Below, one piece after another: positions 16,984 to 32,149 of a stretch of DNA of 64,000 nt. Made by a program: the position numbers and the translations under genes. A model generated the notes under the pieces. That model ran no database searches. It had not been told where the DNA came from and saw only the letters and a list, made by a program, of their open reading frames with translations. Every line of letters begins with the position of its first letter. Position 1 is the first letter of the stretch. The DNA is from Marinilabiliaceae bacterium (lineage in GTDB: Bacteria; Bacteroidota; Bacteroidia; Bacteroidales; VadinHA17). The DNA is taken from assembly GCA_036350795.1 (NCBI GenBank), contig JAZBNV010000137.1, forward strand, positions 24,302-88,301. Reading direction: 5' to 3'.

Positions 16984-19170
16984 TCAGATTTCCAGGTTTG
17001 TAATTTCTTCTGTTACACTGTAATCAAATTCAGGGTACTCGTATACCGCCATTCTAGGCTCTGTTTCACCCAGGCTGTAGCCCCAGATACTTTCATATTC
17101 CCTGATATTTTCTCCCATTTCTGATAGCTGCCTGAGGTACTCGCTTATCGATTTTGATTCTATTATTATAACCTTGCCCATTTTATGGATAATAGGACTG
17201 TGAACCCTGTTTGCGTCATGGTCAAATTCCAGGATTCTCCTGCCATACCTGGTTATGCCTATTACCCTGTATGTAAGACTTTTACCCACACCAGGAAGGT
17301 TAAGCACATTACGGTCGGTAGAAAGAAAGGGGAGTCCTGCTTCATTCCTTAATTTTGCAATATTAGAAGCCAGGTTTTCTGCATCATTTGGAAATTCTTT
17401 AATTTTCCCGAAATATTTTTCGGGAATTTCGCCAAGCACTTTTTCCTCTATCTGCTCCTGCACTGCTCTTGCATTAGTGGCAAAATTAAAACTGTTCTCC
17501 ATATAGCCTTTTACAGAGAAGGTATAATATGTTAAAACGCCAATATCATTAAGTACCTGCCTTAGCTTGGCAGTATGTCCGCGCCGGCTGGCCGAAGAAG
17601 TAAATACCAGCTGGTTGGTAACGGTCCAGCCGGCCGAACTCAACAATTTAACAGCCCTTTCTGCCTCAGGTGTAATTTCCATCGGCGACTCAAAGTGTGT
17701 TTGTATCACAAACTGCTGCACTCCAATTTCCGATGCCTTTGTTTTAAACTCACGCAGTACCGAAATAAGCTCATCCGTAATCCTCTGCGGAAGGTAGGCA
17801 AGTAATCTTGAACCCAGCCTGATCCTGAGCAGTTCTGCGTACTTTTCACCATCCTTCCTCTTCTTATTTGCCTCCTTCTTTCTAAGCGCCATCTCATACA
17901 CCTCGTTCAATATTCGCTGTAGTGAAGCATCAGTACTCATCAGTGCATCTCCACCGGTAATAAGTATATCGCGCAGCTGGCTGTCTTCTTCAAAGTACTG
18001 CATTATCATCTTAAGCTTATCATTCCAGGTTTCTGCCGGTTTTAGCCTGTCGAGGTTGAAGTTCAGGTGTCCCCGCTGGAAATCATACATTCTCTGGCAC
18101 GATGAACATAAGCCTCCGCATGCCCTTCCCATTGTATCAGGGATAAGGATTGCCACTTCAGGATAGCGCCTGTGAACATTATTATATGTTGGCAGTAACC
18201 ATCCTGCAGCATTGGGTTTACCGGGCTCAACAAGGTCCTCCTTTTCCCATGCAACAATATGGCCAAACTCATCAAGCAGCTGCTGGCTGTAAACAACATA
18301 GTAGCGGATTGCCAGGTCAGCACCAATTGCAAAATACGGGACCCTTACATGAAGCAGGGAAAGGTAATATGGATTTACAAAGAAGGGAATGCCCATTTTT
18401 TCGGCATCATAAAGAATTTTCATAGTATCAGGGTCGAGAGAAGACCCCAGCATCTCGTTAAGCAGGTCGGGCGATCTGACTGCGAATCTCAGGTGAAACT
18501 GGTGCTCCTTCCACCAGTCAAGCATCTTAAGAAACTTTTGTTCCCTCGATAAGCCTTCTTCAAAATAATATTTCTTATCGTTTATCTCGCCTGCCTCAAT
18601 CCTATCGATCAGTATATTTATTATTCGCTCCCTGTTCTCTTCCCTCAGGTGAACGATCCGGGGATCATTACCTGCCGGGTACCTGTCCATCCATCCCTTT
18701 ATCTCCTTTTTTCCCGGCATCTTTAGCACATAGGTGCCCGAGAACTGCCTGAAAAGATAGAGCATATCCTCGAAGAAAGCCGGTTTTGCACCACCGGTAC
18801 CCTTCATCACAGCCATCCATATCATCTTAATGGGGTTGGAAACAGCTTTCTCTCCTCTAAGGTTAAGATCTTCGTAAGTACGACCCGCATTATCAATATA
18901 ATCCAGGATTCTGATGGCAGCATAGTCCTGCCAGGATAGTTTCTCAAAGGCCTTTCTGCCTTTAACTTCCCCCAGGTAAAACCTGAAAGCATCGGGACGC
19001 TTTGACAGCAGGTCAATTACCCAGTTCTTAACCCCCACCAGGGCTTCAGTTTCGTTCCGGGCATTGCGCATTATCTCTTCAAGTACGGGGTTCTCTTTAA
19101 GAAGCTCTTTCAGAAGATGATGCGACTTTACATTAATGGCTATCTGATCGAGTTTTACTATTTCTTCCAT
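16984..19170 (-). CDS. KamA-family (lysine 2,3-aminomutase-like) radical SAM protein, long form
   Basis: CxxxCxxC motif CGGLCSSC is encoded at 18097-18120 (residues 351-358). The ITGGDALM block is typical of KamA-type enzymes. 728 aa. Confidence 0.75.
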   Translation of the reverse strand: MEEIVKLDQIAINVKSHHLLKELLKENPVLEEIMRNARNETEALVGVKNWVIDLLSKRPDAFRFYLGEVKGRKAFEKLSWQDYAAIRILDYIDNAGRTYEDLNLRGEKAVSNPIKMIWMAVMKGTGGAKPAFFEDMLYLFRQFSGTYVLKMPGKKEIKGWMDRYPAGNDPRIVHLREENRERIINILIDRIEAGEINDKKYYFEEGLSREQKFLKMLDWWKEHQFHLRFAVRSPDLLNEMLGSSLDPDTMKILYDAEKMGIPFFVNPYYLSLLHVRVPYFAIGADLAIRYYVVYSQQLLDEFGHIVAWEKEDLVEPGKPNAAGWLLPTYNNVHRRYPEVAILIPDTMGRACGGLCSSCQRMYDFQRGHLNFNLDRLKPAETWNDKLKMIMQYFEEDSQLRDILITGGDALMSTDASLQRILNEVYEMALRKKEANKKRKDGEKYAELLRIRLGSRLLAYLPQRITDELISVLREFKTKASEIGVQQFVIQTHFESPMEITPEAERAVKLLSSAGWTVTNQLVFTSSASRRGHTAKLRQVLNDIGVLTYYTFSVKGYMENSFNFATNARAVQEQIEEKVLGEIPEKYFGKIKEFPNDAENLASNIAKLRNEAGLPFLSTDRNVLNLPGVGKSLTYRVIGITRYGRRILEFDHDANRVHSPIIHKMGKVIIIESKSISEYLRQLSEMGENIREYESIWGYSLGETEPRMAVYEYPEFDYSVTEEITNLEI

Positions 19171-19267: not shown

Positions 19268-19792
19268 TTACTGTTCAAGCAATTCGAGCCTTCCAGGTTT
19301 GCCCGGAATTCCCTGTATATTGTCTTTTATACTTGTTGCATATCTAACAATTACCCAGGTCATAGACTTATTTTCCAAACGAAGATTATTTGAATTGCTT
19401 TCATTAACCGGATTGCAGATTGAAAGTCTGATAATGGTTTCATCTGTATCTGATATATCCTTATTCCGGATATATCTTATAATGTTGCCATACATATCCA
19501 GGAAAGCAATACTAAAATAATCACACAAAGGCGGTATATTTATCCTGTATCCCCTGGGTCCTCTTTTAAGAAATGTTACTGAATAATAAGTCTCACAATT
19601 GGGCTTAACAATATATTTTACCTTATGATCAACTTTCTCTGAAAAATGCTTAAACTCCCCGCATATATAGCCTTCTTTTTTAAATGCGCTGTAAATCTTT
19701 TTCACCTCCCACAAAGGATATCTTAAAACAGAGAGACCCAAACCCATTAAAAAACCGGTAAGAAGAGCAATAGCACAAAAAATTATTATCAT
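19268..19792 (-). CDS. hypothetical protein with N-terminal TM anchor (last gene of the sulfation cluster)
   Basis: 174 aa with an N-terminal hydrophobic helix and an ATGA overlap with the upstream gene. No family recognised. Confidence 0.5.
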   Translation of the reverse strand: MIIIFCAIALLTGFLMGLGLSVLRYPLWEVKKIYSAFKKEGYICGEFKHFSEKVDHKVKYIVKPNCETYYSVTFLKRGPRGYRINIPPLCDYFSIAFLDMYGNIIRYIRNKDISDTDETIIRLSICNPVNESNSNNLRLENKSMTWVIVRYATSIKDNIQGIPGKPGRLELLEQ

Positions 19793-20409
19793 CTTATTTT
19801 TATTATAACAGGTAATTTCATCATTTCGGCACCTCTCTTAACTTTCATTGAATCAAGGGGTCTGTAACATCTCAGGGCGAGTGAAAAGTTTTCCTCCTCA
19901 CGAGGGAGTGGAATCATAAACTTTTCATTTTTTGTATAGTCAGCTCTTAGATTAATACAAAGCTTCCGCTTTGAATCAATAACCAGGCTATTACAGCTTC
20001 TAAACATATATTTATTAAAAGGATTATTTACGAGGTATTTGTCTTTACCATATACGGTAATACTCCAGAAACCAAAATTTTCATAGTCAACCTTTATGTC
20101 ATCAGTCAGAATTATATCATAATTATATGCTGAATTTAACTGATCGCCATCAGAATCTGTGAAAGCATTCCAGTAGATTGTTTCATCGCTGCTATTGGCC
20201 CCCAGTCCAATCCTGGCAATCGCCGATCGCTCTATAGCGGGGGTTTCCTTTCTTCCAACACCAAGATGTGTTTTCCATGGCCCGTTTGAGACACCCCGGC
20301 CCTTAGATTTCTCAGCAAGCAGATCCATCAAATACGGAAAAAGAAATATCGCCAACAGAAGCCCTGTTATAAGCAACACAATAAGCAGGAGTATCTCTGA
20401 AATATTCAT
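19789..20409 (-). CDS. TM-anchored DUF1214-domain protein
   Basis: N-terminal TM helix. GFWSITVYG matches the FWS[LI]T[LMV]Y signature I associate with DUF1214. ATGA overlap with the MMPL gene. Confidence 0.6.
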   Translation of the reverse strand: MNISEILLLIVLLITGLLLAIFLFPYLMDLLAEKSKGRGVSNGPWKTHLGVGRKETPAIERSAIARIGLGANSSDETIYWNAFTDSDGDQLNSAYNYDIILTDDIKVDYENFGFWSITVYGKDKYLVNNPFNKYMFRSCNSLVIDSKRKLCINLRADYTKNEKFMIPLPREEENFSLALRCYRPLDSMKVKRGAEMMKLPVIIKIR

Positions 20410-22574
20410 TTAACAGTTTTAATTCCAAGTAAGGCAGGAAGAAGTATAATATCATATATCAATGCCATCATAACATTCAGAGAAATAAATATTCCCATAA
20501 ACATTATAGGCCGGTAACTTGAGAAAACAAGAACCGAGAAGCCACATATCAGCAAAAAAGTAGTAAGCACCAGTGGTCTGCCTACACTTAACATTACCGA
20601 TTTTACTTTATCTGCCCAGTTATTACCAGGCAATGAATAATAACTTGCTGCAAAATGGATAGTATCATCAATCGCAATCCCAAGCGAAATTGAAGCCAGC
20701 AGTACTGTTGCAACATCAATTGGTATACCAATAAAACCCATTATTCCCATCGTAAAAAGAACCGGCAAAATATTCGGTATCATAAATAAAAAGGCAAAAA
20801 GAGCTTTTCTGAAAAGCACCCAGAATACCAGAAGAATAAGAATAAAGGCCAGCAGTAATGAAGTAACCTGGCTTACTACAAGCCTCTTACTCAGATCAGC
20901 AAATAATACTGTAGTACCTGTAATAAAATAATTAATATCCTGTCTTAACTCCAGACTATTCATCACCCCATTTATCTCGTCGGTCAAAATCTCAATGCTT
21001 CTGTCGTTAAGCCATGGAGACTTTAAAGTAATTCTCATCATCTTCCCGTCTGCTGACAGGAAATTTTTTATTGCCTTATTATCTGTAATAAGAGCTTTCA
21101 GGGCACTTGCATCCTTAATGATTATTCCCATATTGTTTTGAAGGTCGCTTAACACTGAGACAGGTGATTGTACCGATCTTATATTATCCAAAACAGAAAG
21201 CTTCTCATGTAATTCTTTTAATAAATCACTTATATATTCCGGATCATCTATCAATGGCTTCTCGGATTTAAGTATTATTTCTATCGGGTAAACAGCCCCG
21301 AACCATTCCTCAGACTTTTTAACAGCAATTCTCACTTTGTTATCTTTTTTCAGATAGGTAACCTGATCAGTACTAAACCGTAGCATTGTTACACCTGTAA
21401 GAGAAAAAAGAAAAAGAACAAAAGCTATTACAACTATGATTCTTTTATTTGCAGAAATCAGGTCGACTGTCCTAACAAAGAAATGATTAAATCTTTGTGA
21501 CATAACAGGCACAGGTGCTGTCCGATAAAAATACAGAATGGGAAGTAGTGTAAACGACAGTAAAAACGATACGATAACTCCAAATGAAGCTACTTTACCA
21601 AAGTCCGATATTGGATCAATCCTGCTAAAGCAAAATACAGAAAGAGCAATGGCTGTTGTAAGTGCGGAGAAGAAACAATTCCGAAAAATCGCTCTAAAGG
21701 TTTCAAGTACATTCTCAGTCTTTGTACCTCTTGAATGTAAATCACTTATTCTTGAGATAAAATGCACCGAGTAGGCCAGGCTGATAACCAGTATTATTAA
21801 AGGCAGTATGCTTACCACCACATTGATTTTTATCCCCAGAATCACCAGGAAACCAAGTGAAATTACAATAGTTATTACTGAAATAATTATTGGAACCAGG
21901 GCTTCAATAATTCTTCTGAATAATAATAAGCTGATAAGAAGCATAATAACAACTGCTGAAATAAAGAACTGTTTTGATTCAACCATTGATAGCCTGTTAA
22001 CCTCCTCTTTTAAGGGAGCCACACCGAATAACACAAATTCTGATCCTTCCGGTAATAGTGCTAAAGAAATTTGCTCAATATCTGTAATTACTTCAGATCT
22101 TTGCCTGTTACTGAGCAAAGTCACTGTATAACTTACAGTTTCTGCACTGGAGGACAAAAGATTATCTTTAACTGTCTCATATGACAGAAGTCTTTCTTTC
22201 AACGCATCGTGACCGGCTCCGGCGGGGAGATTTGCCAGCAGGGGATATTTCAGTCCAGCCAGGCAATACACATCATCCACACCTTCAATTGATAAAAGAC
22301 TATCGTATAGACTTCGTTGGATTTGAAGCTTCTCAGGACTGAGTAAAAGAGTATCATGATAAAACAGAATTATTGTCTCATCACTGCCAAATTCACTGAT
22401 AAATGTTTTAAACCCGATGTATTCCTGGCTTGAATTATCCATCCAGATTTCAACTTCATTATATACAGTCAGTTTCCTCAGCATTAACAAACAAAAAACA
22501 AATACCAGAAGAATAATTCCTACAATTATTTTCCTGTAAAACAGAATATATCTGGCCAATTTATCAATACTCAT
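20406..22574 (-). CDS. MMPL/RND-superfamily exporter
   Basis: 722 aa with two blocks of about 6 TM helices, each preceded by a soluble loop. Typical of MMPL/HpnN-like lipid exporters. Confidence 0.8.
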   Translation of the reverse strand: MSIDKLARYILFYRKIIVGIILLVFVFCLLMLRKLTVYNEVEIWMDNSSQEYIGFKTFISEFGSDETIILFYHDTLLLSPEKLQIQRSLYDSLLSIEGVDDVYCLAGLKYPLLANLPAGAGHDALKERLLSYETVKDNLLSSSAETVSYTVTLLSNRQRSEVITDIEQISLALLPEGSEFVLFGVAPLKEEVNRLSMVESKQFFISAVVIMLLISLLLFRRIIEALVPIIISVITIVISLGFLVILGIKINVVVSILPLIILVISLAYSVHFISRISDLHSRGTKTENVLETFRAIFRNCFFSALTTAIALSVFCFSRIDPISDFGKVASFGVIVSFLLSFTLLPILYFYRTAPVPVMSQRFNHFFVRTVDLISANKRIIVVIAFVLFLFSLTGVTMLRFSTDQVTYLKKDNKVRIAVKKSEEWFGAVYPIEIILKSEKPLIDDPEYISDLLKELHEKLSVLDNIRSVQSPVSVLSDLQNNMGIIIKDASALKALITDNKAIKNFLSADGKMMRITLKSPWLNDRSIEILTDEINGVMNSLELRQDINYFITGTTVLFADLSKRLVVSQVTSLLLAFILILLVFWVLFRKALFAFLFMIPNILPVLFTMGIMGFIGIPIDVATVLLASISLGIAIDDTIHFAASYYSLPGNNWADKVKSVMLSVGRPLVLTTFLLICGFSVLVFSSYRPIMFMGIFISLNVMMALIYDIILLPALLGIKTVK

Positions 22575-23439
22575 AATCTGATTTAAGATTTTGAAGAATT
22601 AAGTTGTTTACTTCATCCGGCCTTTCATATACTGCCAGATGCCCTCCTCCTTGAATAAGGTTAATTTGCTCAATACCGCAAATATGCCGGTGATATTCTG
22701 CTTCCCGTTTTAATGGGGCAACCTTATTGCACTGACCCCAAATAAGTAGCGATTTACTTATATCAGGTCCGGATTTAATAATATTCGCCAGAGTATATGA
22801 CCCTGATGCAAACAGGAGATTAATCCTTGACCTCGTTTGCTTTGAAGTTTTAAACTTGGCCTCATATTTAAGGAAAAGCGGATCTGATTTATCTGGTTTA
22901 TTTCCGAAGAGAATCGCAGGGAAGCGTTTTCTTAATATTGTTCGTGTGGCGAGATAGCCCATTACTTTGCCCAGCACTTCTTTAAAGCGCTTATTGGATG
23001 TACGGAGAATCAGGAACTTCATCAGCCTGTTTCTTATAAGTCTTTCACCGGGACAGATATTTGATAATATGAGCCTGTCGATCATTTCAGGAAAGGTTTT
23101 CTTTAAATAAATCCCGATTGTTGCTCCAATACAATTCCCAATAATTGTAAGCCTGTTAATATCCAGTTTCTTACAAAATTCTATTACTATACTGGAATTG
23201 AACCCTAAATCATAGGGTGTGTCTGCTTCCTGGGACTTGCCAAAACCAGGCAGATCAAGAGCAATTGTTCTGAAAGAATCTTTAAAGAATAATATTTGAT
23301 TTATCCATATTTGCCAGAAGCCGCCGCCGTTATGAATAAAAAGCAGTACAGGTCCGGAGCCTTCATCGATATAATTTATTTCCAGGCCGGAGCAGCTAAT
23401 AGTCCTCTCCCTGATACTGCTGAAATTGTTTTTTATCAT
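22564..23439 (-). CDS. alpha/beta-fold hydrolase with Cys in the nucleophile-elbow position
   Basis: Oxyanion region VLLFIHNGGG. Nucleophile elbow G-N-C-I-G (Cys103 codon TGT at 23131-23133). C-terminal GGGHLAVYERPDEV supplies the catalytic His. Confidence 0.8.
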   Translation of the reverse strand: MIKNNFSSIRERTISCSGLEINYIDEGSGPVLLFIHNGGGFWQIWINQILFFKDSFRTIALDLPGFGKSQEADTPYDLGFNSSIVIEFCKKLDINRLTIIGNCIGATIGIYLKKTFPEMIDRLILSNICPGERLIRNRLMKFLILRTSNKRFKEVLGKVMGYLATRTILRKRFPAILFGNKPDKSDPLFLKYEAKFKTSKQTRSRINLLFASGSYTLANIIKSGPDISKSLLIWGQCNKVAPLKREAEYHRHICGIEQINLIQGGGHLAVYERPDEVNNLILQNLKSDYEY

Positions 23440-23445
23440 CGTATT

Positions 23446-24582
23446 CTATAATAATTCGTCAGGGACTATACCTTTTAGCCTGTCCCTTATATAATCTCTG
23501 TTTACCTGGATAGCCTCATAGCGGTGCTTACTGCGGTATTTGCCCTTCCCATATTCTTTCACAATTTTTTCATATCTATCCTTTCTGATGCTCATACCCA
23601 GAAACTCATATATGTTCAAAAATACTTCAGCAGGTTCTTCCCTTATCTTTTCGAACCTGACAATAATTGATTTACCAGATGCTGGTCCAGACAGTATAGA
23701 GCTGGCATGAATATACCAGTTAACCATAAACTCTGTTGTATCTTCCTTCAGGGGATTTTTCTCTGGAAGCCTGCAGAAATTTGAAAATATATTTGAATTA
23801 AGACTGATTGTTGATGGTATGGTTTCATATGGTGACCGGAGAGGATATATTATATATGCACCCGGGAATTTCTTTACTATTGAGTCAAACCTGGGAATAA
23901 AGGTTGGATTTTTTGAGAGAAAGAATGCCTTTTCTTTCCTGTCAAACACATAATTATGGCGTTGTATACACCTGAAATAGAAATTAATGTTCCTTTTTTT
24001 TACTTTTTCAGGTACCTGCGTATCGTGGTAAAGAAATTTATCCAGAATCTTAAGCCCGGGAAAGAAATAATATAGATATAGAGATGAGAAATTGTATAAA
24101 AACAGAACTTCATCTTCTTCTGGTTTTGAAAGGCCCATTTCATGGATATTTCTGAAATCTCCAAATATTATTTTATCCAAAAACCTGCTTAGCCGCAGAA
24201 GAAAACACCCACACTTTCTGTCGAGCCATATAAGGCCCAGGAAAAAATATTTTTGAATAATTGATGGAGCAAAGACCAGCTCCCACATCTTAAATCCATG
24301 AAAGTTAATCCTGTCTTCCAAAAGGACCTTGAAAAGAAAAGTGGTAGCGCTCCGCGGTACGCCAATAATAAATACAGCTTTCTTCACCTGTAATTTCCTG
24401 TATGGAAAGAAAAATATTTCATCCAGCAACAGGAAAAAATGATTGCTTATAAATAATAGCGCAAACAGAGGGTAGCTTATCAGCACAGCAATTATTCTCC
24501 TTGGTGAAATAAACCTCAGACTGCCGGGCTTAAGTGAAAAAGTATTCAAAAGCAATATTATTAAGATCCTGAGCTTGTACAC
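23446..24582 (-). CDS. PAPS-dependent sulfotransferase with N-terminal hydrophobic anchor
   Basis: 5'-phosphosulfate-binding loop IIGVPRSATTFLFKVL and a 3'-phosphate-binding-like LRSPYETIPS. The first ~60 residues are strongly hydrophobic. Confidence 0.75.
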   Translation of the reverse strand: MYKLRILIILLLNTFSLKPGSLRFISPRRIIAVLISYPLFALLFISNHFFLLLDEIFFFPYRKLQVKKAVFIIGVPRSATTFLFKVLLEDRINFHGFKMWELVFAPSIIQKYFFLGLIWLDRKCGCFLLRLSRFLDKIIFGDFRNIHEMGLSKPEEDEVLFLYNFSSLYLYYFFPGLKILDKFLYHDTQVPEKVKKRNINFYFRCIQRHNYVFDRKEKAFFLSKNPTFIPRFDSIVKKFPGAYIIYPLRSPYETIPSTISLNSNIFSNFCRLPEKNPLKEDTTEFMVNWYIHASSILSGPASGKSIIVRFEKIREEPAEVFLNIYEFLGMSIRKDRYEKIVKEYGKGKYRSKHRYEAIQVNRDYIRDRLKGIVPDELL

Positions 24583-24587
24583 AAGTC

Positions 24588-25583
24588 CTAGTATTTAAAA
24601 AGAATGCTTCCTATTGCGAATCCTGCTGCTGTACCTGCAAGTAAACAGTTCTGACCCCTGTTCAGAATTCCTTTATCTATTACATCATGCAGGCACATTG
24701 GTATAGATGCCGATATAACATTGCCATGAGTCTCAAGGTTGCTGTATATCTTATCTGAAAGTTCGGGAAATAAAGACCTGAACAGATTTATGCCTGCTTT
24801 ACTTGCCTGGTGCGGTGCAATCACATCAACAACCGAATAATCAAGTTCCGCCTCTTGAAAGAAATTCCTGAAAAACACAGCTAATTCCTTCCTTGCAAGT
24901 CGCAACAATTTTCGCCCATCCATGCTAAAACAGTGTATCTCAGGGTCATAAGGACAGTCCCTGGGAGGATACACATTCCCTCCACCTTTAATTATCGAAT
25001 AATCAAATCCTTCAGAATAAACTCTAATCATGCTCTTAATCACACCTCTTTCTTCTTTGTCCCTCTCAAGAATTACGGCCGCTGCACCATCCCCAAACAG
25101 GGTAATAATCTCCTCTTTTTGTTCCCATAAACCCTTTGAAGATGCCTCTGAGCTCACAATAGCTATTCGACGGTATTCTCCATTTGATATCAGAGACGAA
25201 GCAAGGTCAAAAGCAGAGATAAAACTCAGGCAGCTGGTATTTATATCAAATGCCGGAATTCTTCTTTCCAATTCAGAAGAAAAATGTTTCAGTATAAATG
25301 CAGCCTGAAAGGGCAATATGTAATCGAAGGTAGCTGAGGCATTTATAAGCAGGTCTATATCATCAATCTTCAGTCCGGCATTTGCGAGTGCTGCTTTTAA
25401 TGCATTATACCCCATTTCGGCATTCGTTTCACCATCGACCCATGAACGCTCTCTCACTCCCGAGAATCTTTCTGCCCAACCTGAGGGTAAATTAAGCTTT
25501 GCTTCCAGATCAGCAGAATTGACTTTGTGCCCCGGCAAATACTTGCCTGTTCCTGCAATTCTTACCTTATTAATTATATTCAT
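24588..25583 (-). CDS. KAS III (FabH)-like thiolase-superfamily condensing enzyme
   Basis: Cys-His-Asn triad in NTSCLSF, APHQASK and HGNVISAS. I prefer the ATG at 25583 (MNIINKVRIAGTGKYLP) because the 52-residue extension in the track overlaps the upstream CDS. Confidence 0.85.
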   Translation of the reverse strand: MNIINKVRIAGTGKYLPGHKVNSADLEAKLNLPSGWAERFSGVRERSWVDGETNAEMGYNALKAALANAGLKIDDIDLLINASATFDYILPFQAAFILKHFSSELERRIPAFDINTSCLSFISAFDLASSLISNGEYRRIAIVSSEASSKGLWEQKEEIITLFGDGAAAVILERDKEERGVIKSMIRVYSEGFDYSIIKGGGNVYPPRDCPYDPEIHCFSMDGRKLLRLARKELAVFFRNFFQEAELDYSVVDVIAPHQASKAGINLFRSLFPELSDKIYSNLETHGNVISASIPMCLHDVIDKGILNRGQNCLLAGTAAGFAIGSILFKY

Positions 25584-26871
25584 TTCGGATCCTCCTGAGT
25601 TTGACTCCTGTTTCCATAATGTTTGATGCCCTGAACAATACCCTGCAGTCTTTAATATTATACTTTGAGAGCAGATTCTCGATGCCTGCCAGAATGGAAC
25701 TACTGACAATGTCGCTATTAGCAATATTATAGCATTCAAAATACACCTCCAATGTCTTTATGCCAGTCTGACAGATAGTATAATACCTTATCTCATCAGA
25801 AGCCAGGGCAACTGCTCTTCTAAGGTAATCAGGAAAAATATCCACCAGCATATTTCTATTGTCGGGCAAACGTATAATATCATCGTTCCGGCCTTCAATT
25901 CTATCTATTACCGGAAGACTGATCCCGCAGTCACAATCATCTCCATCAACCAGTATATCATCAAGTCTGTATCTTACAACTGGTTGAGATCGCCTGTAGA
26001 GGTCTGTAATTACAGGATTATACCTTCCGCTTTCCCTGTCAACATAATCTTTCTCTATTATCAGGAAATCTGTATTAAGGTGGATTCTGCCTTTGCTGCA
26101 CCTGAATCCAATAAAACCTTCCGTGGCCTGGTAAACCTCTCCAATCTTGAGCCCGAATATCTCTTGTAAATATATTTCATCCTGCTTCTCCAGGATTTCT
26201 GCAATTGAAATTACTTTTTTAAAACCTGGTTTAATATTATTATCCTCATAAAGCTTCGCCAGCATTAACAATACAGATGGCTGAGCAACCAGGATATCAG
26301 CTTTAAGGCTAATTAAATGCTGAAAACTTTCTCCAACAGGCTTTAGCAGGTCAAAATAATTAAACTTAAGCAGTGCGGACCCTGAAGATTCATATAACCT
26401 GGAGTTTGCCCTGAGAAAAAACGCAACTGTCCTTTTACGAAAAGACAGACCAATCACTCTATGCAGTATAGCGGCAATCCACATAGCTCTCTCCCTTTCC
26501 GAGGCAAGAAACACGCCCTTATTACCTGAAGTACCGGTTGACAATCCTACAGTTATGCTGTTTAGTGTTTCCGAAAAGTCCCTTCTTTCTTCTGCCAGTG
26601 CTGCCAGGCTGTTTGCGTCTGTAAGTTTTAATCCAACTGTATTAATAGTATCAAAATTCTTCATAAAAATCTCCTTGTTTATTATTGGAAACTCATGAAG
26701 TTCTTTATTTCGAATATTCATCCTGGAATAGAAGCCCGACAATTCCAGGTGCCTTTTAAGTTTCTTAAACCTCTTTTCCTGAAGGACTTTTAGCTTTTCA
26801 TTACTTTTTTTATGATCCCTGTTTAAGTAAAAGGCCAGTAGTTGATATAATATTATAATTCTGAATTTCAT
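25570..26871 (-). CDS. adenylate-forming enzyme, coenzyme F390 synthetase / PaaK-like
   Basis: 433 aa with a phosphate-binding loop GLSTGTSGNKGVF and YQATEGFIG. The size and motif order match the PaaK/F390-synthetase branch of ANL enzymes. Confidence 0.7.
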   Translation of the reverse strand: MKFRIIILYQLLAFYLNRDHKKSNEKLKVLQEKRFKKLKRHLELSGFYSRMNIRNKELHEFPIINKEIFMKNFDTINTVGLKLTDANSLAALAEERRDFSETLNSITVGLSTGTSGNKGVFLASERERAMWIAAILHRVIGLSFRKRTVAFFLRANSRLYESSGSALLKFNYFDLLKPVGESFQHLISLKADILVAQPSVLLMLAKLYEDNNIKPGFKKVISIAEILEKQDEIYLQEIFGLKIGEVYQATEGFIGFRCSKGRIHLNTDFLIIEKDYVDRESGRYNPVITDLYRRSQPVVRYRLDDILVDGDDCDCGISLPVIDRIEGRNDDIIRLPDNRNMLVDIFPDYLRRAVALASDEIRYYTICQTGIKTLEVYFECYNIANSDIVSSSILAGIENLLSKYNIKDCRVLFRASNIMETGVKLRRIRNEYN

Positions 26872-26881
26872 TCTTTATCAC

Positions 26882-27688
26882 TTATATTCCGGCTTCCCGG
26901 CAGTGCGAAGGAATTATCCTTAAACCAGGCCTGGCAACATTAAGTTTATTTAGCATATCCAGGGTTCTGCTCATTATAGTGTAGTTATCAACAAACAATG
27001 ATGTGATCCTTGAAGGATATATCTTCTCCCTTATTGATCTCATCGACCATGCGGCATCACCACACAATAGCACTTCACCTTTGTCAGTATCAGAAAGATA
27101 CAGACCTATCTGCCCCCTGAAGTGACCTGGCAGATCAACAAAAAACAGATCATCATCCCATTTCCAGGAAGTAAAACCAAGAATACTTTCTTCATTAAAC
27201 TCAGCTTCCGGATATTTCGCCCTGTAATAAATATTATCTGGAATCAAAGAATTCAGTATTCCTCTCCTGACCGCTCCAAATCCTTTCTTTCCCAATGCAT
27301 AGTCTAGTCCTTTTTTAGAACACCAGATACCTGAATCCGGAAAATCCAACAAACCTGCAATATGATCACCATGGAAATGAGATATTACGATATAATCAAT
27401 ATCACCGGGTCCAATTCCCATTGTCTGCAGCCTTTTCAGGCATGTCATATCATCATCCAGGAAAACAGGCGTTGCAGCACCATAGATCTTCCCTGGAAAT
27501 TTCTTTGTCTCCACAACAAATCTCTCGCTATAGCCGGTGTCGAAAAGTATTTTCCCTACAACAGGGTGCTCAATTAAAGCCCAGTGTGCATAAAATCTCC
27601 CCCTCCCTGATTCCAAACCAGGAAATACATGTCTCATTCTCGAAACACAATATCCACTTGAGAATATTTCTATCCTGGTTTTACTCAT
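26882..27688 (-). CDS. MBL-fold metallo-hydrolase
   Basis: HxHxDH motif (SHFHGDHIAG), a later CGDAAW motif and a C-terminal His. 268 aa. Confidence 0.85.
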   Translation of the reverse strand: MSKTRIEIFSSGYCVSRMRHVFPGLESGRGRFYAHWALIEHPVVGKILFDTGYSERFVVETKKFPGKIYGAATPVFLDDDMTCLKRLQTMGIGPGDIDYIVISHFHGDHIAGLLDFPDSGIWCSKKGLDYALGKKGFGAVRRGILNSLIPDNIYYRAKYPEAEFNEESILGFTSWKWDDDLFFVDLPGHFRGQIGLYLSDTDKGEVLLCGDAAWSMRSIREKIYPSRITSLFVDNYTIMSRTLDMLNKLNVARPGLRIIPSHCREAGI

Positions 27689-28667
27689 TCTTAAGATATT
27701 GCTTTATAAACTCCCCGATACTTTCTTCTGTTGAAATTATTGGTTCATATCCCAGGAGTTTCCTTGCCTGTGATATATCCAGCGTACACGAAAACCTTAG
27801 TAATCCAACACCATAGGAAGTTAACACGGGCTCTTCCTTTAGTATTAATCTATTTATTAGCTCATAAAACCCGGCAATTATCTTTACCGGTCTGTATGGC
27901 ACCCTTTTAAGTTTACTGTCCAAACCTAACTTGTTGAGAGTATCTTCGATCATACTCCACATCGGAAGAGCCTGGCCGTCAGTTATATTAAATATTTTTC
28001 CGTCAATATCATTATCAGTTGTTAAAGCCAGATATGCGGCATGGGCAACATTTTTTACAGAAGAAAAATCCGATATATTAGATCCCGGTCCTATAATTCT
28101 TAGCTTGCCAGCTTTATAAGCTTTAATTAACCTGGGAATAATAACTGTATCTCCTGCACCAACTATTGCCCTGGGCCTAAGAACAGTTTTTACCATTCCG
28201 GGCTTTACAAAATTCAGGACTTCTTTTTCGGCCATATATTTTGTTGCGGTATAATGATTCACAAACCTGGAAGGAAGTTTACTGTCTTCACTTATCATAT
28301 ATTTATCCTTATATTCAAAATATATACTCGGAGTAGATATATATACAAAGCTCTTAAGATCTTTAATATATTCTAACAGGTTTAAGGTTGCGACAACATT
28401 ATCCTGATAAAAATCTTCATATTTACCCCACAGAGAAGATTTTGCCGCGCAATGTACCAGGCAATCAATATTTTTAAATTGCGACTTAACAAAATCAACA
28501 CTACATAAATCTCCAGGATAAATATTATATCCTTCAGCCCGTAAGATCTCAGATTGTACAATATTTCTTCCTGTACCGATAATGTTACCAATCCCAAATC
28601 TTTTCGCTAACATTTTAAGCATATTGCCTCCCAGGAATCCGGTTGCTCCGGTAACAAGTATTCTCAT
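27681..28667 (-). CDS. extended SDR, 3-beta-hydroxysteroid dehydrogenase / epimerase-like
   Basis: MRILVTGATGFLGG (TGxxGxxG) and YTATK (YxxxK). 328 aa. Confidence 0.85.
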   Translation of the reverse strand: MRILVTGATGFLGGNMLKMLAKRFGIGNIIGTGRNIVQSEILRAEGYNIYPGDLCSVDFVKSQFKNIDCLVHCAAKSSLWGKYEDFYQDNVVATLNLLEYIKDLKSFVYISTPSIYFEYKDKYMISEDSKLPSRFVNHYTATKYMAEKEVLNFVKPGMVKTVLRPRAIVGAGDTVIIPRLIKAYKAGKLRIIGPGSNISDFSSVKNVAHAAYLALTTDNDIDGKIFNITDGQALPMWSMIEDTLNKLGLDSKLKRVPYRPVKIIAGFYELINRLILKEEPVLTSYGVGLLRFSCTLDISQARKLLGYEPIISTEESIGEFIKQYLKNE

Positions 28668-28789
28668 TGATTATAAGGATTGTCCAGATATTAACTGATG
28701 TCAATTAAATAATTATGCTGTCCTCCAAATATCTTCAGCCTCTTACTAATATACGAAATATTTTAAAGCCCTTCTTTGAATACTGTGTA

Positions 28790-30091
28790 CTATACAGTAC
28801 CACAAATCATCCCGACAGCGCATGTATTATAGCTCTCAGGATCAATAAGAATAAAAGCTCCGGTAGTCCTGTTATTTTTGTATAAATCAAAAAATAACTG
28901 CCTGTTAGTGCATACTTTAACAAGGCCAATATCATTCAGACCAAATGAGTCAGCCTTTTGCATTTCAAGCTTATTTATGTCCAGTCGTTGATCCACCTCT
29001 ATCTTACTTGTTTTACAAACAGTACTCAGGTGCTTGAATAGATATGAAACCCCTTCCCTTAGCGGCAGATCATCCAGCCAGACCATTGTTGACCAAAACG
29101 CAGTTCCGGACTCCGGGAGACTGCCGGGGTCAACCAGAAGTGACCCTCTTTCAAGTTCGATACTATTCCCAAGCTTAAGTGCCACAGTCTGGCCGGCAAA
29201 TGCAAATTCTTGCTCAGAATTGTTTCTTATAATGGCATCAATTTTTACAGGTTCTTTACCCGGCAATACAAGCAAATTATCTCCTTTCTCAATTGTTCCA
29301 GATGCTATACTGAGACAGTAATATTTAAGCTTATCAGCCTCATTTATTATATATTGCACAGGCATCCTGAGATCATGATAGTTTTTATTATCTCTTACCG
29401 GAACTGTCTCCAGGTATCCAAGCAGGCTATTTCCCTTATACCAGGCCATTTTTTCTGTAGACTGAACCACGTTTTCTCCTTTCAGTGCTGATATGGGAAC
29501 ATATTGAACATCCGGAATGTGAAGATCTTCAATTATTCTATCAAAATCATGGCATATACTCTTATACACTTTCTCATCATAAGCAACAAGATCCATCTTA
29601 TTTACTGCCAGGATAATATGCCTGATACCAATTAGAGATACAAGGTATGCATGTCTCTTTGTCTGGCTGCAAATTCCTCTTGTAGCATCTACCAGTAATA
29701 CTGCAAGGTTTGCAGTTGATGCGCCTGTTATCATATTCCTGGTATACCTGTAGTGACCCGGAGTATCTGCAATTATAAATTTTCGCTTGTTTGTAGAAAA
29801 ATACCTGTATGCTACATCTATAGTTATACCAAGGTCCCGTTCATCTTTCAGTCCGTCTGTAACAAAAGAGAAATCGATCTCACCATTCAGAAAACCATGC
29901 CGTTTACTCTCTTTCTTCAGTGATAAAAGGTGATCTGCATATAGAGCCCGGGTATCATACATCAACCTTCCGATCAGGGTAGATTTTCCATCATCAACAG
30001 ATCCTGCGGTAAGAAATCTTAAAAGATCCTTTTTTTGATCTTCATCAAGATATTCCTTTATTGAATTATGTAATATCGGCATCCCGGCCAC
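28790..30091 (-). CDS. cysN: sulfate adenylyltransferase subunit 1 (GTPase)
   Basis: G1 GSVDDGKSTL, G3 DTPGH and G4 NKMD. EF-Tu-like domains II/III follow. Confidence 0.9.
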   Translation of the reverse strand: MAGMPILHNSIKEYLDEDQKKDLLRFLTAGSVDDGKSTLIGRLMYDTRALYADHLLSLKKESKRHGFLNGEIDFSFVTDGLKDERDLGITIDVAYRYFSTNKRKFIIADTPGHYRYTRNMITGASTANLAVLLVDATRGICSQTKRHAYLVSLIGIRHIILAVNKMDLVAYDEKVYKSICHDFDRIIEDLHIPDVQYVPISALKGENVVQSTEKMAWYKGNSLLGYLETVPVRDNKNYHDLRMPVQYIINEADKLKYYCLSIASGTIEKGDNLLVLPGKEPVKIDAIIRNNSEQEFAFAGQTVALKLGNSIELERGSLLVDPGSLPESGTAFWSTMVWLDDLPLREGVSYLFKHLSTVCKTSKIEVDQRLDINKLEMQKADSFGLNDIGLVKVCTNRQLFFDLYKNNRTTGAFILIDPESYNTCAVGMICGTV

Positions 30092-30106
30092 AGGTTCAAA
30101 TTTGGA

Positions 30107-31033
30107 CTAAAAATATCCTTCTCTTTTCTTCATCTCCATACTTGCCTCCTGGTCAAAATCAATAACCCTGGAAGTCCTTTCAGATTTATTAACAGTAAAC
30201 ATTTCTTCTACAATTTTATCAATCGTATCTGCTTCAGATCTTATCGCTCCGGTTAAGGGATAACAACCAAGGGTTCTGAACCTCACTTTTTGCAACTCTG
30301 CCTTAATCCTGAATTTCTCTGGCATTCGTTCATCATCTGCCAGGATCAGATTTCCATCTATATCTACTACCTCCCTGATCTTTGCGAAGTAGAGGGGGAC
30401 TATGGGGATGCTCTCCATCCTGATATATTGCCAGATGTCAAGCTCAGTCCAGTTACTTAATGGAAAAACCCTTATCGACTCGCCTCTATGAATTTTTGTA
30501 TTGTATATATTCCATAACTCAGGCCTCTGGCAGCCCGGATCCCAGTAATGATTCTTATCGCGAAAAGAAAAAATACGTTCCTTTGCTCTTGATTTCTCCT
30601 CGTCACGCCTTCCTCCTCCAAATACTGCATCAAAACCATAATGATTGAGCCCGTCCAGCAAAGCTTCAGTTTTCATTATATCTGTGTGGATCTTGCTTCC
30701 ATGCGAAAAAGGACCTATACCATTTTCATATCCAATCCTGTTATAATGTACTATCAATTTATGGCCTCTCTCCCTGATGTATCTATCCCTAAACTCTATC
30801 ATCTCTGAGAATTTCCATTTTGAATCAATATGCATCAGGGGAAAGGGTAAGCTGCCCGGATAGAAGGCTTTTTCTGCAAGTTTCAACAATACTGAAGAGT
30901 CTTTACCCATTGAATAAAGCAAAACAGGTCGTTCAAATTCTGCTGTAACTTCTCTTATTATATGAATCGCCTCATCTTCCAAATCCTGAAGATGTGATGT
31001 CTTCACTCTATATCCTGCTTTGATCTCTTTCAT
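30107..31033 (-). CDS. cysD: sulfate adenylyltransferase subunit 2
   Basis: PP-loop [10 protein letters not shown] and an N-terminal [17 protein letters not shown] typical of CysD. I prefer the ATG at 31033; the track start is 31051. Confidence 0.9.
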
Positions 31034-31568
31034 TATTAGCAATATAGGCAATTATTATCTCAACTGCCTTATCAGCACTAATAATTCTTGTGTCTATCAA
31101 AATATCAGGACGAATGGGTGTTTCGTAAGGTGAATCAATACCGGTAAAATTTGTAATCTCTCCTTGCAGTGCTCTTTTATAAAGCCCTTTGGGATCACGT
31201 TTTATACACTCCTCGAGAGATGTGGAAAGGTATATTTCAATATAATTCCTGCACAATTGCCTTACAAAGGATCTGCCTTCCTCGTAAGGTGAAATAAATG
31301 CCGCAACAACAGAAACATTATGTTTCTCTAATTTACTGGCAAGGTAACCAATCCTTTTAATATGCTCATTCCTGGCTTCCCTGGTAAATCCTGTTGAGGG
31401 GAAAATATCTCTGACCTCATCTCCGTCCAGAAACTCAAGCTCTGTTCCCATCGTCTTAAGCCTGTCTGCAAGTTTGCGGGCAATAGTGGTTTTTCCTGAA
31501 CCCGACAATCCTGTAAACCAATATACTCCGGGCTTATTAACTATACTAATAGGTTTCTGGGTTTCCAT
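31008..31568 (-). CDS. cysC: adenylyl-sulfate (APS) kinase
   Basis: P-loop [20 protein letters not shown] and AFISPY motifs. 186 aa. Confidence 0.9.
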
Positions 31569-31601
31569 CTGAAGGGATCTGTCGATACTTTCCAGTGTAT
31601 A

Positions 31602-32003
31602 TTAATTCATTGGTACCCTGCCGGCCTTCTGGTTAAAAAGATCTACTGTTTCGTCCTGCAGCAAAGCCCAGATTGAATAAACACCTTTGGCTGTACCAAT
31701 CGGAACATTAAGACAGTTAAGTGCCGACAGTACAATTACCAGCATCCTGGCCCAGTTCTGGTAATTCAGTACTCCTATTCCTCCTATAATACCCAGGATG
31801 GACGTTACACAAATTAATACCGGAACAAGTACCAGTATTGCTTTCATTATTTCTTCGGCAATATCAATGCCCTCCACAAATGAAAGTGCAAAAGAAAGTG
31901 CAAAGAATACTACAACAGCACCTATAATTCCCAGGATACCAAAACCAATATGCAGTGCACCAACAAAGGTCACATGCTTTTTCATGTTTCTGACTTTTTC
32001 CAT
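31602..32003 (-). CDS. small integral membrane protein (about 4 TM helices), first gene of the cluster transcription unit
   Basis: Hydrophobic segments throughout and a 33-nt gap to cysC. I prefer the ATG at 32003 (MEKVRNMKKH). No family recognised. Confidence 0.5.
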   Translation of the reverse strand: MEKVRNMKKHVTFVGALHIGFGILGIIGAVVVFFALSFALSFVEGIDIAEEIMKAILVLVPVLICVTSILGIIGGIGVLNYQNWARMLVIVLSALNCLNVPIGTAKGVYSIWALLQDETVDLFNQKAGRVPMN

Positions 32004-32149
32004 AATTAATTCTTTTCTTAAAGATATGAAATTCATAAAAATGATGCTTCAATGGGCTAATTAGATCCCATTATTTGAACATTATAATAATTTTCAGGTT
32101 TACCTGATGTCCCTTTAGGGAAATATAGTATTAACCTATCCCAGGATAT

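Follow-up and report, generated by a model that had tools for sequence, protein, structure and literature searches.

A cluster of 13 co-directional open reading frames (ORFs) occupies positions 19268-32036 on the minus strand of a 64,000-nucleotide stretch of DNA, hereafter the window, from a metagenome-assembled genome (MAG) of a Marinilabiliaceae bacterium (assembly GCA_036350795.1, contig JAZBNV010000137.1 of 106 kb, positions 24,302 to 88,301). The protein accessions MEE4116720.1 and MEE4116722.1 belong to this locus. On balance, and with moderate confidence, we read it as a biosynthesis-and-export cluster for an O-sulfated lipid, organised around a four-enzyme module that is conserved in Bacteroidota. 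The gene content of the locus, the family membership of its proteins, their synteny and their co-occurrence were observed directly. The linkage of the genes is solid; judged by analogy, the chemistry would be of the sulfated-lipid type that depends on 3'-phosphoadenosine 5'-phosphosulfate (PAPS), placed on an uncharacterised but widespread module.

The four enzymes of the module are an extended short-chain dehydrogenase/reductase (SDR; 27681-28667, minus strand as for every gene of the cluster; Pfam Epimerase and 3Beta_HSD), a metallo-beta-lactamase (MBL)-fold hydrolase (26882-27688; Pfam Lactamase_B 3.6e-12, HFHGDH motif), an adenylate-forming enzyme of the F390-synthetase-related/PaaK-like group (25570-26871; TIGR02304) and a ketosynthase of the ketoacyl synthase III (KASIII) type (24588-25583, within an ORF of 24588-25739; Pfam ACP_syn_III and ACP_syn_III_C). 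All family calls were made by Pfam and NCBIfam profile searches of the ORF translations. An alignment of homologues of the F390-like enzyme was scanned against one genome per species, yielding at least 599 pattern matches, at least 575 of them encoding relatives; comparative counts rest on the best 80 loci of these at least 575 relatives and on tblastn searches with the 13 window proteins. Wherever a locus was long enough to reveal the quartet, SDR, MBL, F390-like enzyme and KASIII followed each other with order and orientation unchanged in essentially all cases. The central genes were colinear in about 70 of the 80 independent genome loci, with the SDR colinear in 72, which is far more than chance would produce. 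Represented among the loci are Bacteroidales, Flavobacteriales, Cytophagales, Chitinophagales and Saprospiraceae as well as Balneolaceae and Rhodothermaceae, and at least 575 species-level genomes, mostly of Bacteroidota, carry the quartet. Because order and orientation are kept across these loci, the quartet is the conserved core of the system, a module that stands alone, is widespread and takes sulfation as an optional tailoring step.

The genes flanking the quartet are variable. Clustering of the flanking ORFs recovered a sulfotransferase (ST) in 33-36 loci and an FA_hydroxylase protein in 25, and other recurrent neighbours were FA_desaturase, Acyl_transf_3, JmjC/cupin hydroxylase, Rieske oxygenase together with DUF3419 (BtaA-like), radical S-adenosylmethionine (SAM) and ATP-grasp proteins. 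These recurrent neighbours are lipid-tailoring enzymes, several of which create or act on hydroxyl groups. Their lipid-modifying character points to a lipid as the scaffold and to tailoring on its hydroxyl groups, and we read the quartet as a putative lipid-scaffold module with interchangeable decoration. In seven loci from Emticicia and relatives (L023, L031, L041, L043, L045, L051 and L059) a Rieske/VanA_C oxygenase and a DUF3419 protein (BtaA-like, SAM-dependent) stand after the quartet and replace the sulfotransferase. The gene content of these loci suggests an alternative polar head group on the same scaffold. Among the culturable strains that have a quartet without sulfotransferase are Crocinitomix catalasitica ATCC 23190 (L017), Emticicia aquatica (L023) and Flavivirga algicola (L040), and the cultured Lacibacter sediminis encodes a sulfotransferase homologue.

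The closest relatives of the window cluster, at 50-57% identity (loci L001, L004 and L087), share an eight-gene set consisting of SDR, MBL, F390-like enzyme, KASIII, sulfotransferase, a DUF1214 protein, a DUF1254 protein and an alpha/beta-fold enzyme (ABH), the last four in an order that differs from that of the window. An earlier reading of this DNA from sequence alone (the sequence-only reading) had treated all 13 genes as one unit. The comparison reduces this unit: only the eight-gene core is syntenic, and cysCDN, the MMPL transporter gene and ORF 1 are, on comparison of the sequences, lineage-specific additions. The neighbourhood search that the same reading had called for did find the quartet and the sulfotransferase syntenic in many related genomes.

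For the SDR, the best NCBIfam matches were two models of OleD, a 2-alkyl-3-oxoalkanoate reductase, at 177 and 171 bits (both below the cutoffs of 580), and the best match in the PDB was NSDHL (6jkg). By analogy, the enzyme is probably a 3-keto reductase of a condensed acyl intermediate. The KASIII scored 200.6 bits against CorB (4yuc) and 199.4 bits against MxnB (4v2p), as compared to 140.7 bits for the best FabH and about 48-53 bits for the Xanthomonas campestris OleA structures (3row, 4kti and others). Its residues 8-331 align with residues 12-335 of CorB, i.e. over the full length (E = 2.8e-58; 6.8e-58 for MxnB), and its Cys-His-Asn triad is aligned with that of CorB/MxnB. CorB and MxnB join two chains head-to-head in a non-decarboxylative manner and form a pyrone. 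By sequence, the KASIII of the window is closest to these head-to-head pyrone-forming ketosynthases, and pyrone formation by the window enzyme would be an extension by analogy. The nearest relatives of both the KASIII and the OleD-like SDR handle head-to-head condensation products.

The other two core enzymes are compatible with activation and release of an acyl chain. The F390-like enzyme matched TIGR02304 at 378.6 bits (cutoff 251.9) over profile positions 17-427 of 430. Its PDB relatives were the PaaK-like ligases 6siw, 9s3l and AjiA1, at about 2e-11, and the search gave no match to the Pfam AMP-binding family. From these matches it is probably a carboxylate activator, and it serves as the signature protein of the quartet. 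The best NCBIfam and PDB matches of the MBL enzyme were N-acyl-homoserine lactone (AHL) lactonases of the AttM/AiiA type and 4-pyridoxolactonase, all below the family cutoffs; by analogy this lactonase-like enzyme is a probable lactone or thioester hydrolase.

Directly after the KASIII gene, the window encodes a membrane-associated sulfotransferase (23446-24582). The protein matched Sulfotransfer_3 (PF13469) at 55.4 bits (gathering score 27) and PF00685 at 31.4 bits (gathering score 22). A family profile built from 27 homologues and searched against the PDB detected Stf1 (2zq5, 1.7e-15) and TPST1 (2e-9), with TPST2 also matched; the sulfotransferase domains of CurM (4gbm, 5e-8) and of olefin synthase (OLS; 4gox, 1.7e-6) were detected as well and ranked below Stf1 and TPST. 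P76, R77, T80, K224, N225, P226 and R249 are invariant among the 27 homologues and represent the PRSxTT 5'-phosphosulfate loop, the KNP motif and the R-S-P 3'-phosphate motif, with P76, R77, T80 and R249 aligned to the corresponding segments of Stf1 and TPST1. An AlphaFold2 model of the protein reached a mean predicted local distance difference test (pLDDT) value of 90.0. A Foldseek search with this model returned Stf9 (2z6v; E 7e-9, TM-score 0.61) as the best match followed by Stf1 (2zq5; TM-score about 0.6), and all 50 of the top 50 listed fold matches were sulfotransferases or sulfotransferase-fold enzymes. The N-terminus is hydrophobic, a feature conserved among the homologues. The protein is accordingly classed, from sequence and model, as a PAPS-dependent sulfotransferase of the Stf1/Stf9-like type with predicted activity. 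The earlier interpretation had been made to hang on this call; since the protein passes the profile hidden Markov model (HMM) and fold tests, together with the profile-versus-PDB and motif tests, the call stands. Homologues of the protein carry the Joint Genome Institute (JGI) label 'omega-hydroxy-beta-dihydromenaquinone-9 sulfotransferase', a name that is an automated annotation transfer and not a test.

The sulfotransferase gene is tightly linked to the quartet. It follows the KASIII gene directly in 33 of the 80 genome loci (about 40%), and in 25 of these 33 its start lies within 50 nt of the KASIII stop codon, often overlapping it. In a metagenome scan centred on the sulfotransferase, homologues of at least 34% identity were mostly linked to a quartet, whereas those of at most 33% identity were located elsewhere, mainly on contigs of high GC content. 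Seven metagenome contigs (L116, L118, L119, L138, L140, L153 and L154), of high GC content and by guess proteobacterial, carry such distant relatives at 29-33% identity. Here, in a conserved gene neighbourhood, the sulfotransferase is accompanied by a protein of about 396 aa that appears glycosyltransferase-like by eye (no profile search was made) and by a protein of about 246 aa, with no relation to the quartet. Two further loci, L002 (10001-12565) and L003, hold a sulfotransferase homologue of 40% identity beside a fatty-acid desaturase and lack a quartet within 10 kb; the desaturase is of the same family as those standing beside the quartet in L053, L062, L081 and L082. These two loci indicate that tailoring genes can be unlinked from the core.

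The ABH gene (22564-23439; Pfam Abhydrolase_1) adjoins the sulfotransferase gene in the window. Its product has a cysteine at the nucleophile elbow (GNCIG), His267 and, in the usual position of the acid, Asn238, all of them invariant, as well as a second invariant cysteine, Cys129 (NICPG). Such a Cys-His-Asn set, papain/thiolase-like as far as the sequence tells, is unusual for Abhydrolase_1 proteins. The family is sharply bounded, with scores falling from 172 to 127 bits, and has homologues in L001, L004, L013 and other loci. The AlphaFold2 model (pLDDT 92.7) matches generic capped alpha/beta hydrolases, namely PlaF, epoxide hydrolases, haloalkane dehalogenases and meta-cleavage product (MCP) hydrolases. 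For co-occurrence, we compared 33 sulfotransferase-positive with 32 sulfotransferase-negative loci, using statistics that ignore phylogenetic non-independence. An ABH gene was present in 15 of the 33 positive loci and in one of the 32 negative loci (p = 8e-5). Sequence and distribution suggest that the ABH is probably a sulfotransferase-linked tailoring enzyme, acting as an acyl-S-enzyme transferase or a thioesterase.

A supply of the sulfate donor is encoded in the upstream part of the cluster by cysC (31008-31568; APS_kinase 1e-49, GLSGSGKTT P-loop; adenosine 5'-phosphosulfate (APS) kinase), cysD (30107-31033, within an ORF of 30107-31051; PAPS_reduct 2.5e-50, SMGKDSS; small subunit of sulfate adenylyltransferase) and cysN (28790-30091; GTP_EFTU 7e-42 and GTP-eEF1A_C, with G1, G3 and G4 motifs; GTPase subunit of sulfate adenylyltransferase). 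All three proteins have intact nucleotide-binding motifs, and CysN is not fused to CysC in the window. Cys genes stand beside a quartet with sulfotransferase in three layouts from three lineages: upstream as C-D-N in the window, downstream as C-D-N in L029, where sulfotransferase, ABH, desaturase, cysC, cysD and cysN are tightly packed, and downstream in L039 from a Balneola MAG, where the sulfotransferase is followed by cysD and then by a 627-aa CysN-CysC fusion (L039 14367-16250). In L036, L063 and L082, cysC lies beside quartet and sulfotransferase. In total, a cys gene was found within 10 kb in five of the 33 sulfotransferase-positive loci and in none of the 32 negative ones (Fisher p = 0.053, not corrected for phylogeny). 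The proposed link between cysDNC and the sulfotransferase holds in so far as it recurs beside quartet and sulfotransferase in independent layouts, but it is not kept in the close relatives. Profile searches of the cluster and of those window ORFs up to about 53 kb that encode 170 aa or more (about 53-64 kb lay outside the scan) found no acyl carrier protein (ACP), polyketide synthase (PKS), non-ribosomal peptide synthetase (NRPS), glycosyltransferase, cysH or sulfite reductase. We count the lack of cysH and sulfite reductase in this part of the window in favour of the O-sulfated lipid reading, in which the PAPS supply may be a dedicated one.

Downstream of the ABH gene lies the gene of an MMPL/HAE3-type transporter of the resistance-nodulation-division (RND) superfamily (20406-22574; Pfam MMPL 1.4e-33, Patched and Sterol-sensing). 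The PF03176 match amounts to 116.7 bits in two stretches. About 12 hydrophobic segments, clustered at residues 195-401 and 563-721, fit a 12-transmembrane two-lobe architecture. The NCBIfam HAE3 model TIGR00921 scored 193.5 bits, below its cutoff of 351.9. From these features the protein is a probable lipid exporter; L004 and L006 are the only loci in which a homologue of it comes after the cluster. The last two genes encode a DUF1214 protein (19789-20409; PF06742, 52.1 bits vs 25) and a DUF1254 protein (19268-19792; PF06863, 32.3 bits vs 22.2), each anchored by an N-terminal hydrophobic segment (residues 1-33 and 1-25, respectively). DUF1254 and DUF1214 are normally fused in one protein with DUF1254 first. 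In the window they are two separate genes in reversed order, each with a transmembrane segment of its own, and the two are kept together in L001 (11146-12290), L004 and L087. Searching both proteins against the PDB gave a single, non-significant match to the C-terminal half of VPA0106. ORF 13 had at first been called an unknown protein; its assignment to DUF1254 makes it one half of a split DUF1214/DUF1254 pair with ORF 12.

At the opposite end of the cluster, ORF 1 (31602-32036) encodes a small multi-pass membrane protein with 3-4 hydrophobic segments. It had been described as a four-transmembrane protein starting at 32003; its multi-pass nature was recovered, and a start at 32036 is equally open to it. 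Its sole family match was weak and sub-threshold (DUF7144), and no counterpart was found in any of the related loci compared, leaving ORF 1 unique to the window and its membership of the system uncertain.

The packing of the 13 genes agrees with the account given in the sequence-only reading, whose ORFs, overlaps and intergenic gap were all recovered in the ORF listing. Four-nucleotide overlaps lie at 20406-20409 and 19789-19792, and further overlaps at 27681-27688, 22564-22574, 25570-25583 (KASIII ATG at 25583) and 31008-31033 (cysD ATG at 31033). The sole real gap in the cluster, of 122 nt at 28668-28789, separates cysN from the SDR gene. The motifs quoted at that stage, including the Cys, His and Asn residues of the KASIII, are all present in the translations, the family calls other than that for ORF 13 were borne out by the Pfam and NCBIfam profiles, and the genes then listed as absent from the cluster (ACP, glycosyltransferase, PKS/NRPS, cysH and sulfite reductase) did not turn up in the profile searches either.

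Outside the cluster, the scanned part of the window contains housekeeping genes such as an ATP synthase operon. GC content is 36-40% across the cluster (20001-32000) and 41-46% in its flanks. A mobile island was considered and set aside, as tRNA genes, Rfam families and flanking repeats were all not found and the lower GC content is the sole hint. A 728-aa ORF on the minus strand (16984-19170), 97 nt downstream of the cluster, has no Pfam match at E <= 0.01 and contains the motifs CGGLCSSC (CxxxCxxC) and ITGGDALM, resembling radical SAM aminomutases of the KamA type. This ORF and the upstream methyltransferase and ThuA genes were excluded from the system because they are not conserved beside the cluster elsewhere. 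Elsewhere in the window, a 959-aa ORF without Pfam match (39983-42862, plus strand) adjoins a gene on the minus strand (36672-39893) whose 1073-aa product contains a TMEM260-like O-mannosyltransferase domain.

From the families assembled here we infer the substrates, the order of the steps, the position of the sulfate and a sulfate ester as the final product. In the proposed mechanism, the F390/PaaK-like enzyme would activate a fatty or beta-keto carboxylate with ATP, and the CorB/MxnB-like KASIII would carry out a Claisen condensation of two acyl units to give a 3-keto (probably 2-alkyl-branched) or a pyrone/lactone intermediate. The OleD-like SDR could then turn the 3-keto group into a hydroxyl. 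Hydrolysis of a thioester or lactone by the lactonase-like MBL enzyme may release or open the product. At the membrane, the Stf1-like sulfotransferase would transfer sulfate from PAPS, supplied locally by CysD, CysN and CysC, to a hydroxyl of the lipid. A step tied to sulfation, either an acyl transfer or a thioester reaction, may be performed by the Cys-His ABH. Finally, removal of the anionic lipid from the inner membrane would fall to the MMPL/HAE3 transporter, perhaps together with the DUF1214/DUF1254 pair. Precedents for the individual roles, by analogy only, are found in mycolate (FadD32/Pks13/CmrA/MmpL3), alkylquinolone (PqsA/PqsD/PqsE) and olefin (OleA-D) biosynthesis. The interpretation of the locus as one for a sulfated lipid, already put forward in the sequence-only reading, is strengthened by the sulfotransferase, the synteny and the lipid-modifying accessory genes; that reading had missed the quartet as a widespread module. 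It had likewise named the enzyme families correctly and overlooked that the KASIII is CorB/MxnB-like, the SDR OleD-like and the ABH nucleophile a cysteine.

Several points weigh against an O-sulfated lipid cluster. The chemistry of the quartet is argued by analogy because the SDR, KASIII and MBL scores lie below the curated cutoffs of the nearest named families. Since the locus contains no hydroxylase, the acceptor hydroxyl is assumed to come from the SDR step. The association of cys genes with the sulfotransferase is only borderline significant (p = 0.053, phylogeny uncorrected), cysCDN is not present in the close relatives L001 and L004, and the cysDNC set of the window may be the only copy in the genome. 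The MMPL gene is not present in the close relative L001. The quartet may have a promoter of its own in the 122 nt that precede the SDR gene, and a single 13-gene transcript would be presumptive, as scans for promoters and terminators were uninformative, giving counts no better than in shuffled sequence with a scan model not suited to Bacteroidota promoters.

Three other readings were weighed against the same evidence. The sulfate could be a leaving group, with the sulfotransferase activating the 3-hydroxyl of a (2-alkyl-)3-hydroxy acid and the ABH carrying out release and a decarboxylative elimination to an olefin, as in CurM/OLS. The KASIII and the OleD-like SDR would deliver just the beta-hydroxy acid needed, a dedicated PAPS supply would suit stoichiometric consumption of PAPS, the CurM and OLS sulfotransferase domains are recovered by the sulfotransferase profile and appear again among the fold matches, and sulfotransferase and ABH are strongly paired (15/33 vs 1/32 loci). 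However, the ABH is missing from about half of the sulfotransferase-positive loci, its nucleophile is a cysteine, and the CurM thioesterase is not among its top 60 sequence or top 50 fold matches. The sulfotransferase is nearer to Stf1, Stf9 and TPST than to CurM, no ACP is present in the cluster, and an MMPL exporter together with periplasmic proteins anchored in the membrane suits an amphiphile better than a hydrocarbon. We therefore regard elimination to an olefin as unlikely. A small diffusible pyrone or lactone, serving as signal or antibiotic, would place the emphasis on the full-length similarity of the KASIII to the pyrone-forming CorB/MxnB, on the AHL lactonases and 4-pyridoxolactonase as nearest relatives of the MBL enzyme and on the activation of small aromatic acids by PaaK-like relatives of the F390-like enzyme. 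In this reading the ketosynthase would form an alkyl-pyrone, to be processed by the MBL enzyme, and the product would not be a membrane or surface lipid. Sulfation would then modulate activity or solubility or provide a sulfate carrier; sulfated pyrones serve as sulfate carrier in caprazamycin biosynthesis. The recurrence of integral-membrane fatty-acid hydroxylases and desaturases as neighbours, an exporter of a lipid-transporting type, the membrane anchoring of the sulfotransferase and of the DUF proteins, and an SDR whose nearest relative, OleD, has long-chain 2-alkyl-3-oxo acids as substrates, speak for a lipid instead and make a diffusible pyrone very improbable in our view.

It is also conceivable, at a decidedly low probability, that the neighbouring genes are functionally separate. 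In that case cysCDN would represent ordinary sulfate activation placed here by chance, and the acceptor of the sulfotransferase would be menaquinone (as for Stf3), an exogenous sterol or a hydroxy fatty acid. The 122-nt gap between cysN and the SDR gene, the closest relatives without cysCDN and the p value of 0.053 for the cys association would all fit, as would the sulfotransferase homologues found away from the quartet (e.g. L002 and L003). ErSULT from Eubacterium ramulus and BtSULT from Bacteroides thetaiotaomicron, moreover, act on exogenous substrates (PMC13449962). The menaquinone-type JGI name of the homologues points in the same direction, but is an automated transfer. Against chance neighbourhood stand the close spacing of the sulfotransferase and KASIII genes (within 50 nt in 25/33 loci, often overlapping) and the finding that the quartet-linked sulfotransferases are the high-identity part of the family. 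Cys genes, in turn, occur in three layouts by sulfotransferase-positive quartets and by none of the 32 sulfotransferase-negative ones, and the part of the window that was scanned yielded neither cysH nor sulfite reductase. A cluster for the synthesis and export of an O-sulfated lipid thus remains the reading we prefer.

Beyond this, we tentatively put forward a broader proposal, which we hold to be possible though rather doubtful as a whole. The quartet might constitute a hitherto unrecognised, Ole-independent route to head-to-head condensed lipids, i.e. mycolate-like 2-alkyl-3-hydroxy acids or lactones derived from them, that is widespread in Bacteroidota and relatives and whose product is O-sulfated and exported in one sub-lineage. 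This would entail a new class of bacterial sulfolipids, a new acyl-transfer enzyme of the ABH type with a Cys-His-Asn set and a first functional context for DUF1214/DUF1254. Bacteroidota dominate polysaccharide degradation in the sea and in the gut. If the lipid reading is true, a new lipid class could emerge that affects their envelopes, surface properties or signalling, and the locus would provide full genetic access to the making of a sulfated lipid de novo, comprising scaffold, sulfation, PAPS supply and export. Given the at least 575 species-level genomes with a quartet, thousands of genes would gain an annotation once one member has been solved. To our knowledge, sulfated bacterial lipids are rare and biologically potent, as exemplified by mycobacterial sulfolipids and by the sulfated sterols and hydroxy fatty acids of gut bacteria. 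The first report of a bacterial enzyme sulfating fatty acids dates from as late as 2026.

In the full-text literature we found no description of the quartet or of the cluster, in line with the earlier statement that no characterised pathway of this composition was known to the reader; ErSULT alone came up, as a precedent at the level of the enzyme. Comparison with known systems yields partial likenesses. With OleABCD the locus shares the roles of a condensing enzyme, an OleD-like 3-keto reductase, an ATP-dependent carboxylate activator and an enzyme of a hydrolase fold. In contrast to that system, the KASIII scores about 53 bits to OleA as compared to 200 to CorB, the activator is F390/PaaK-like and not of the OleC type, the SDR stays far below the OleD cutoffs and the fourth conserved enzyme has an MBL fold instead of being an alpha/beta hydrolase with an Asp nucleophile. 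Membership of the Ole system was rejected, as OleA, OleC and OleB are unmatched and the ABH, with its Cys nucleophile, lies outside the conserved quartet. Among proteins of solved structure, the KASIII is most closely related to CorB and MxnB, over the full length and with the triad aligned, but these two act in large PKS/NRPS assembly lines on ACP-bound chains, whereas neither PKS nor ACP is present here. The sulfotransferase-thioesterase (ST-TE) pairs of CurM and OLS resemble the locus in combining a PAPS-dependent sulfotransferase with an alpha/beta-fold enzyme. In the window, by contrast, the enzymes are free-standing and without ACP, the hydrolase is of the Cys type and the sulfotransferase often occurs without it. 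The locus was not assigned to the CurM ST-TE type, since the CurM sulfotransferase ranks below Stf1 and TPST, the CurM thioesterase is not among the best ABH matches and no ACP gene is present. A system of ligase, KASIII and MBL thioesterase like that of the Pseudomonas quinolone signal (PQS) was rejected as well, with PqsD and PqsC being only distant and PqsE not among the MBL matches, and serves as a mechanistic analogy only.

Sulfolipid-1 (SL-1) of Mycobacterium tuberculosis is made by Stf0, Pks2, PapA1/PapA2 and MmpL8, with PAPS from CysDNC. Of the known systems, this is the one whose logic the cluster most resembles, in that it joins a PAPS-dependent sulfotransferase with lipid-building enzymes and an MMPL exporter, and the fold of its sulfotransferase is nearest to the mycobacterial Stf1 and Stf9. 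It differs in its Bacteroidota host, in having the PAPS genes within the cluster and in the absence of PKS, PapA acyltransferase and trehalose chemistry, with the quartet proposed to build the scaffold instead. Profile searches of the 13 ORFs detected neither a PKS nor a PapA-type domain, and SL-1 is used here as an analogy only. In Bacteroides thetaiotaomicron, a locus that we take to consist of cysC-D-N and the sulfotransferase BtSULT offers a parallel closer in taxonomy. BtSULT is likewise a Bacteroidota Sulfotransfer_3 protein linked to PAPS synthesis (family placement from PMC13449962). Compared by description only, it differs in that it sulfates host steroids and has no lipid-building genes adjoining. 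ErSULT from Eubacterium ramulus (JACS 2026) sulfates 3- and 16-hydroxyhexadecanoic acid with PAPS in vitro (PMC13449962). By description, the two enzymes are alike: ErSULT is a Sulfotransfer_3 protein with Stf1 as its sole close structural match and the same automated name of the EC 2.8.2.40 type (PMC13449962). ErSULT acts by itself on hydroxy fatty acids that are supplied to it, and its description includes no gene cluster or operon (PMC13449962); the sulfotransferase of the window, by contrast, carries a membrane segment at its N-terminus and forms part of a putative biosynthetic operon. At the level of the enzyme, ErSULT is the nearest precedent for the sulfation of a hydroxy lipid as proposed for this locus.

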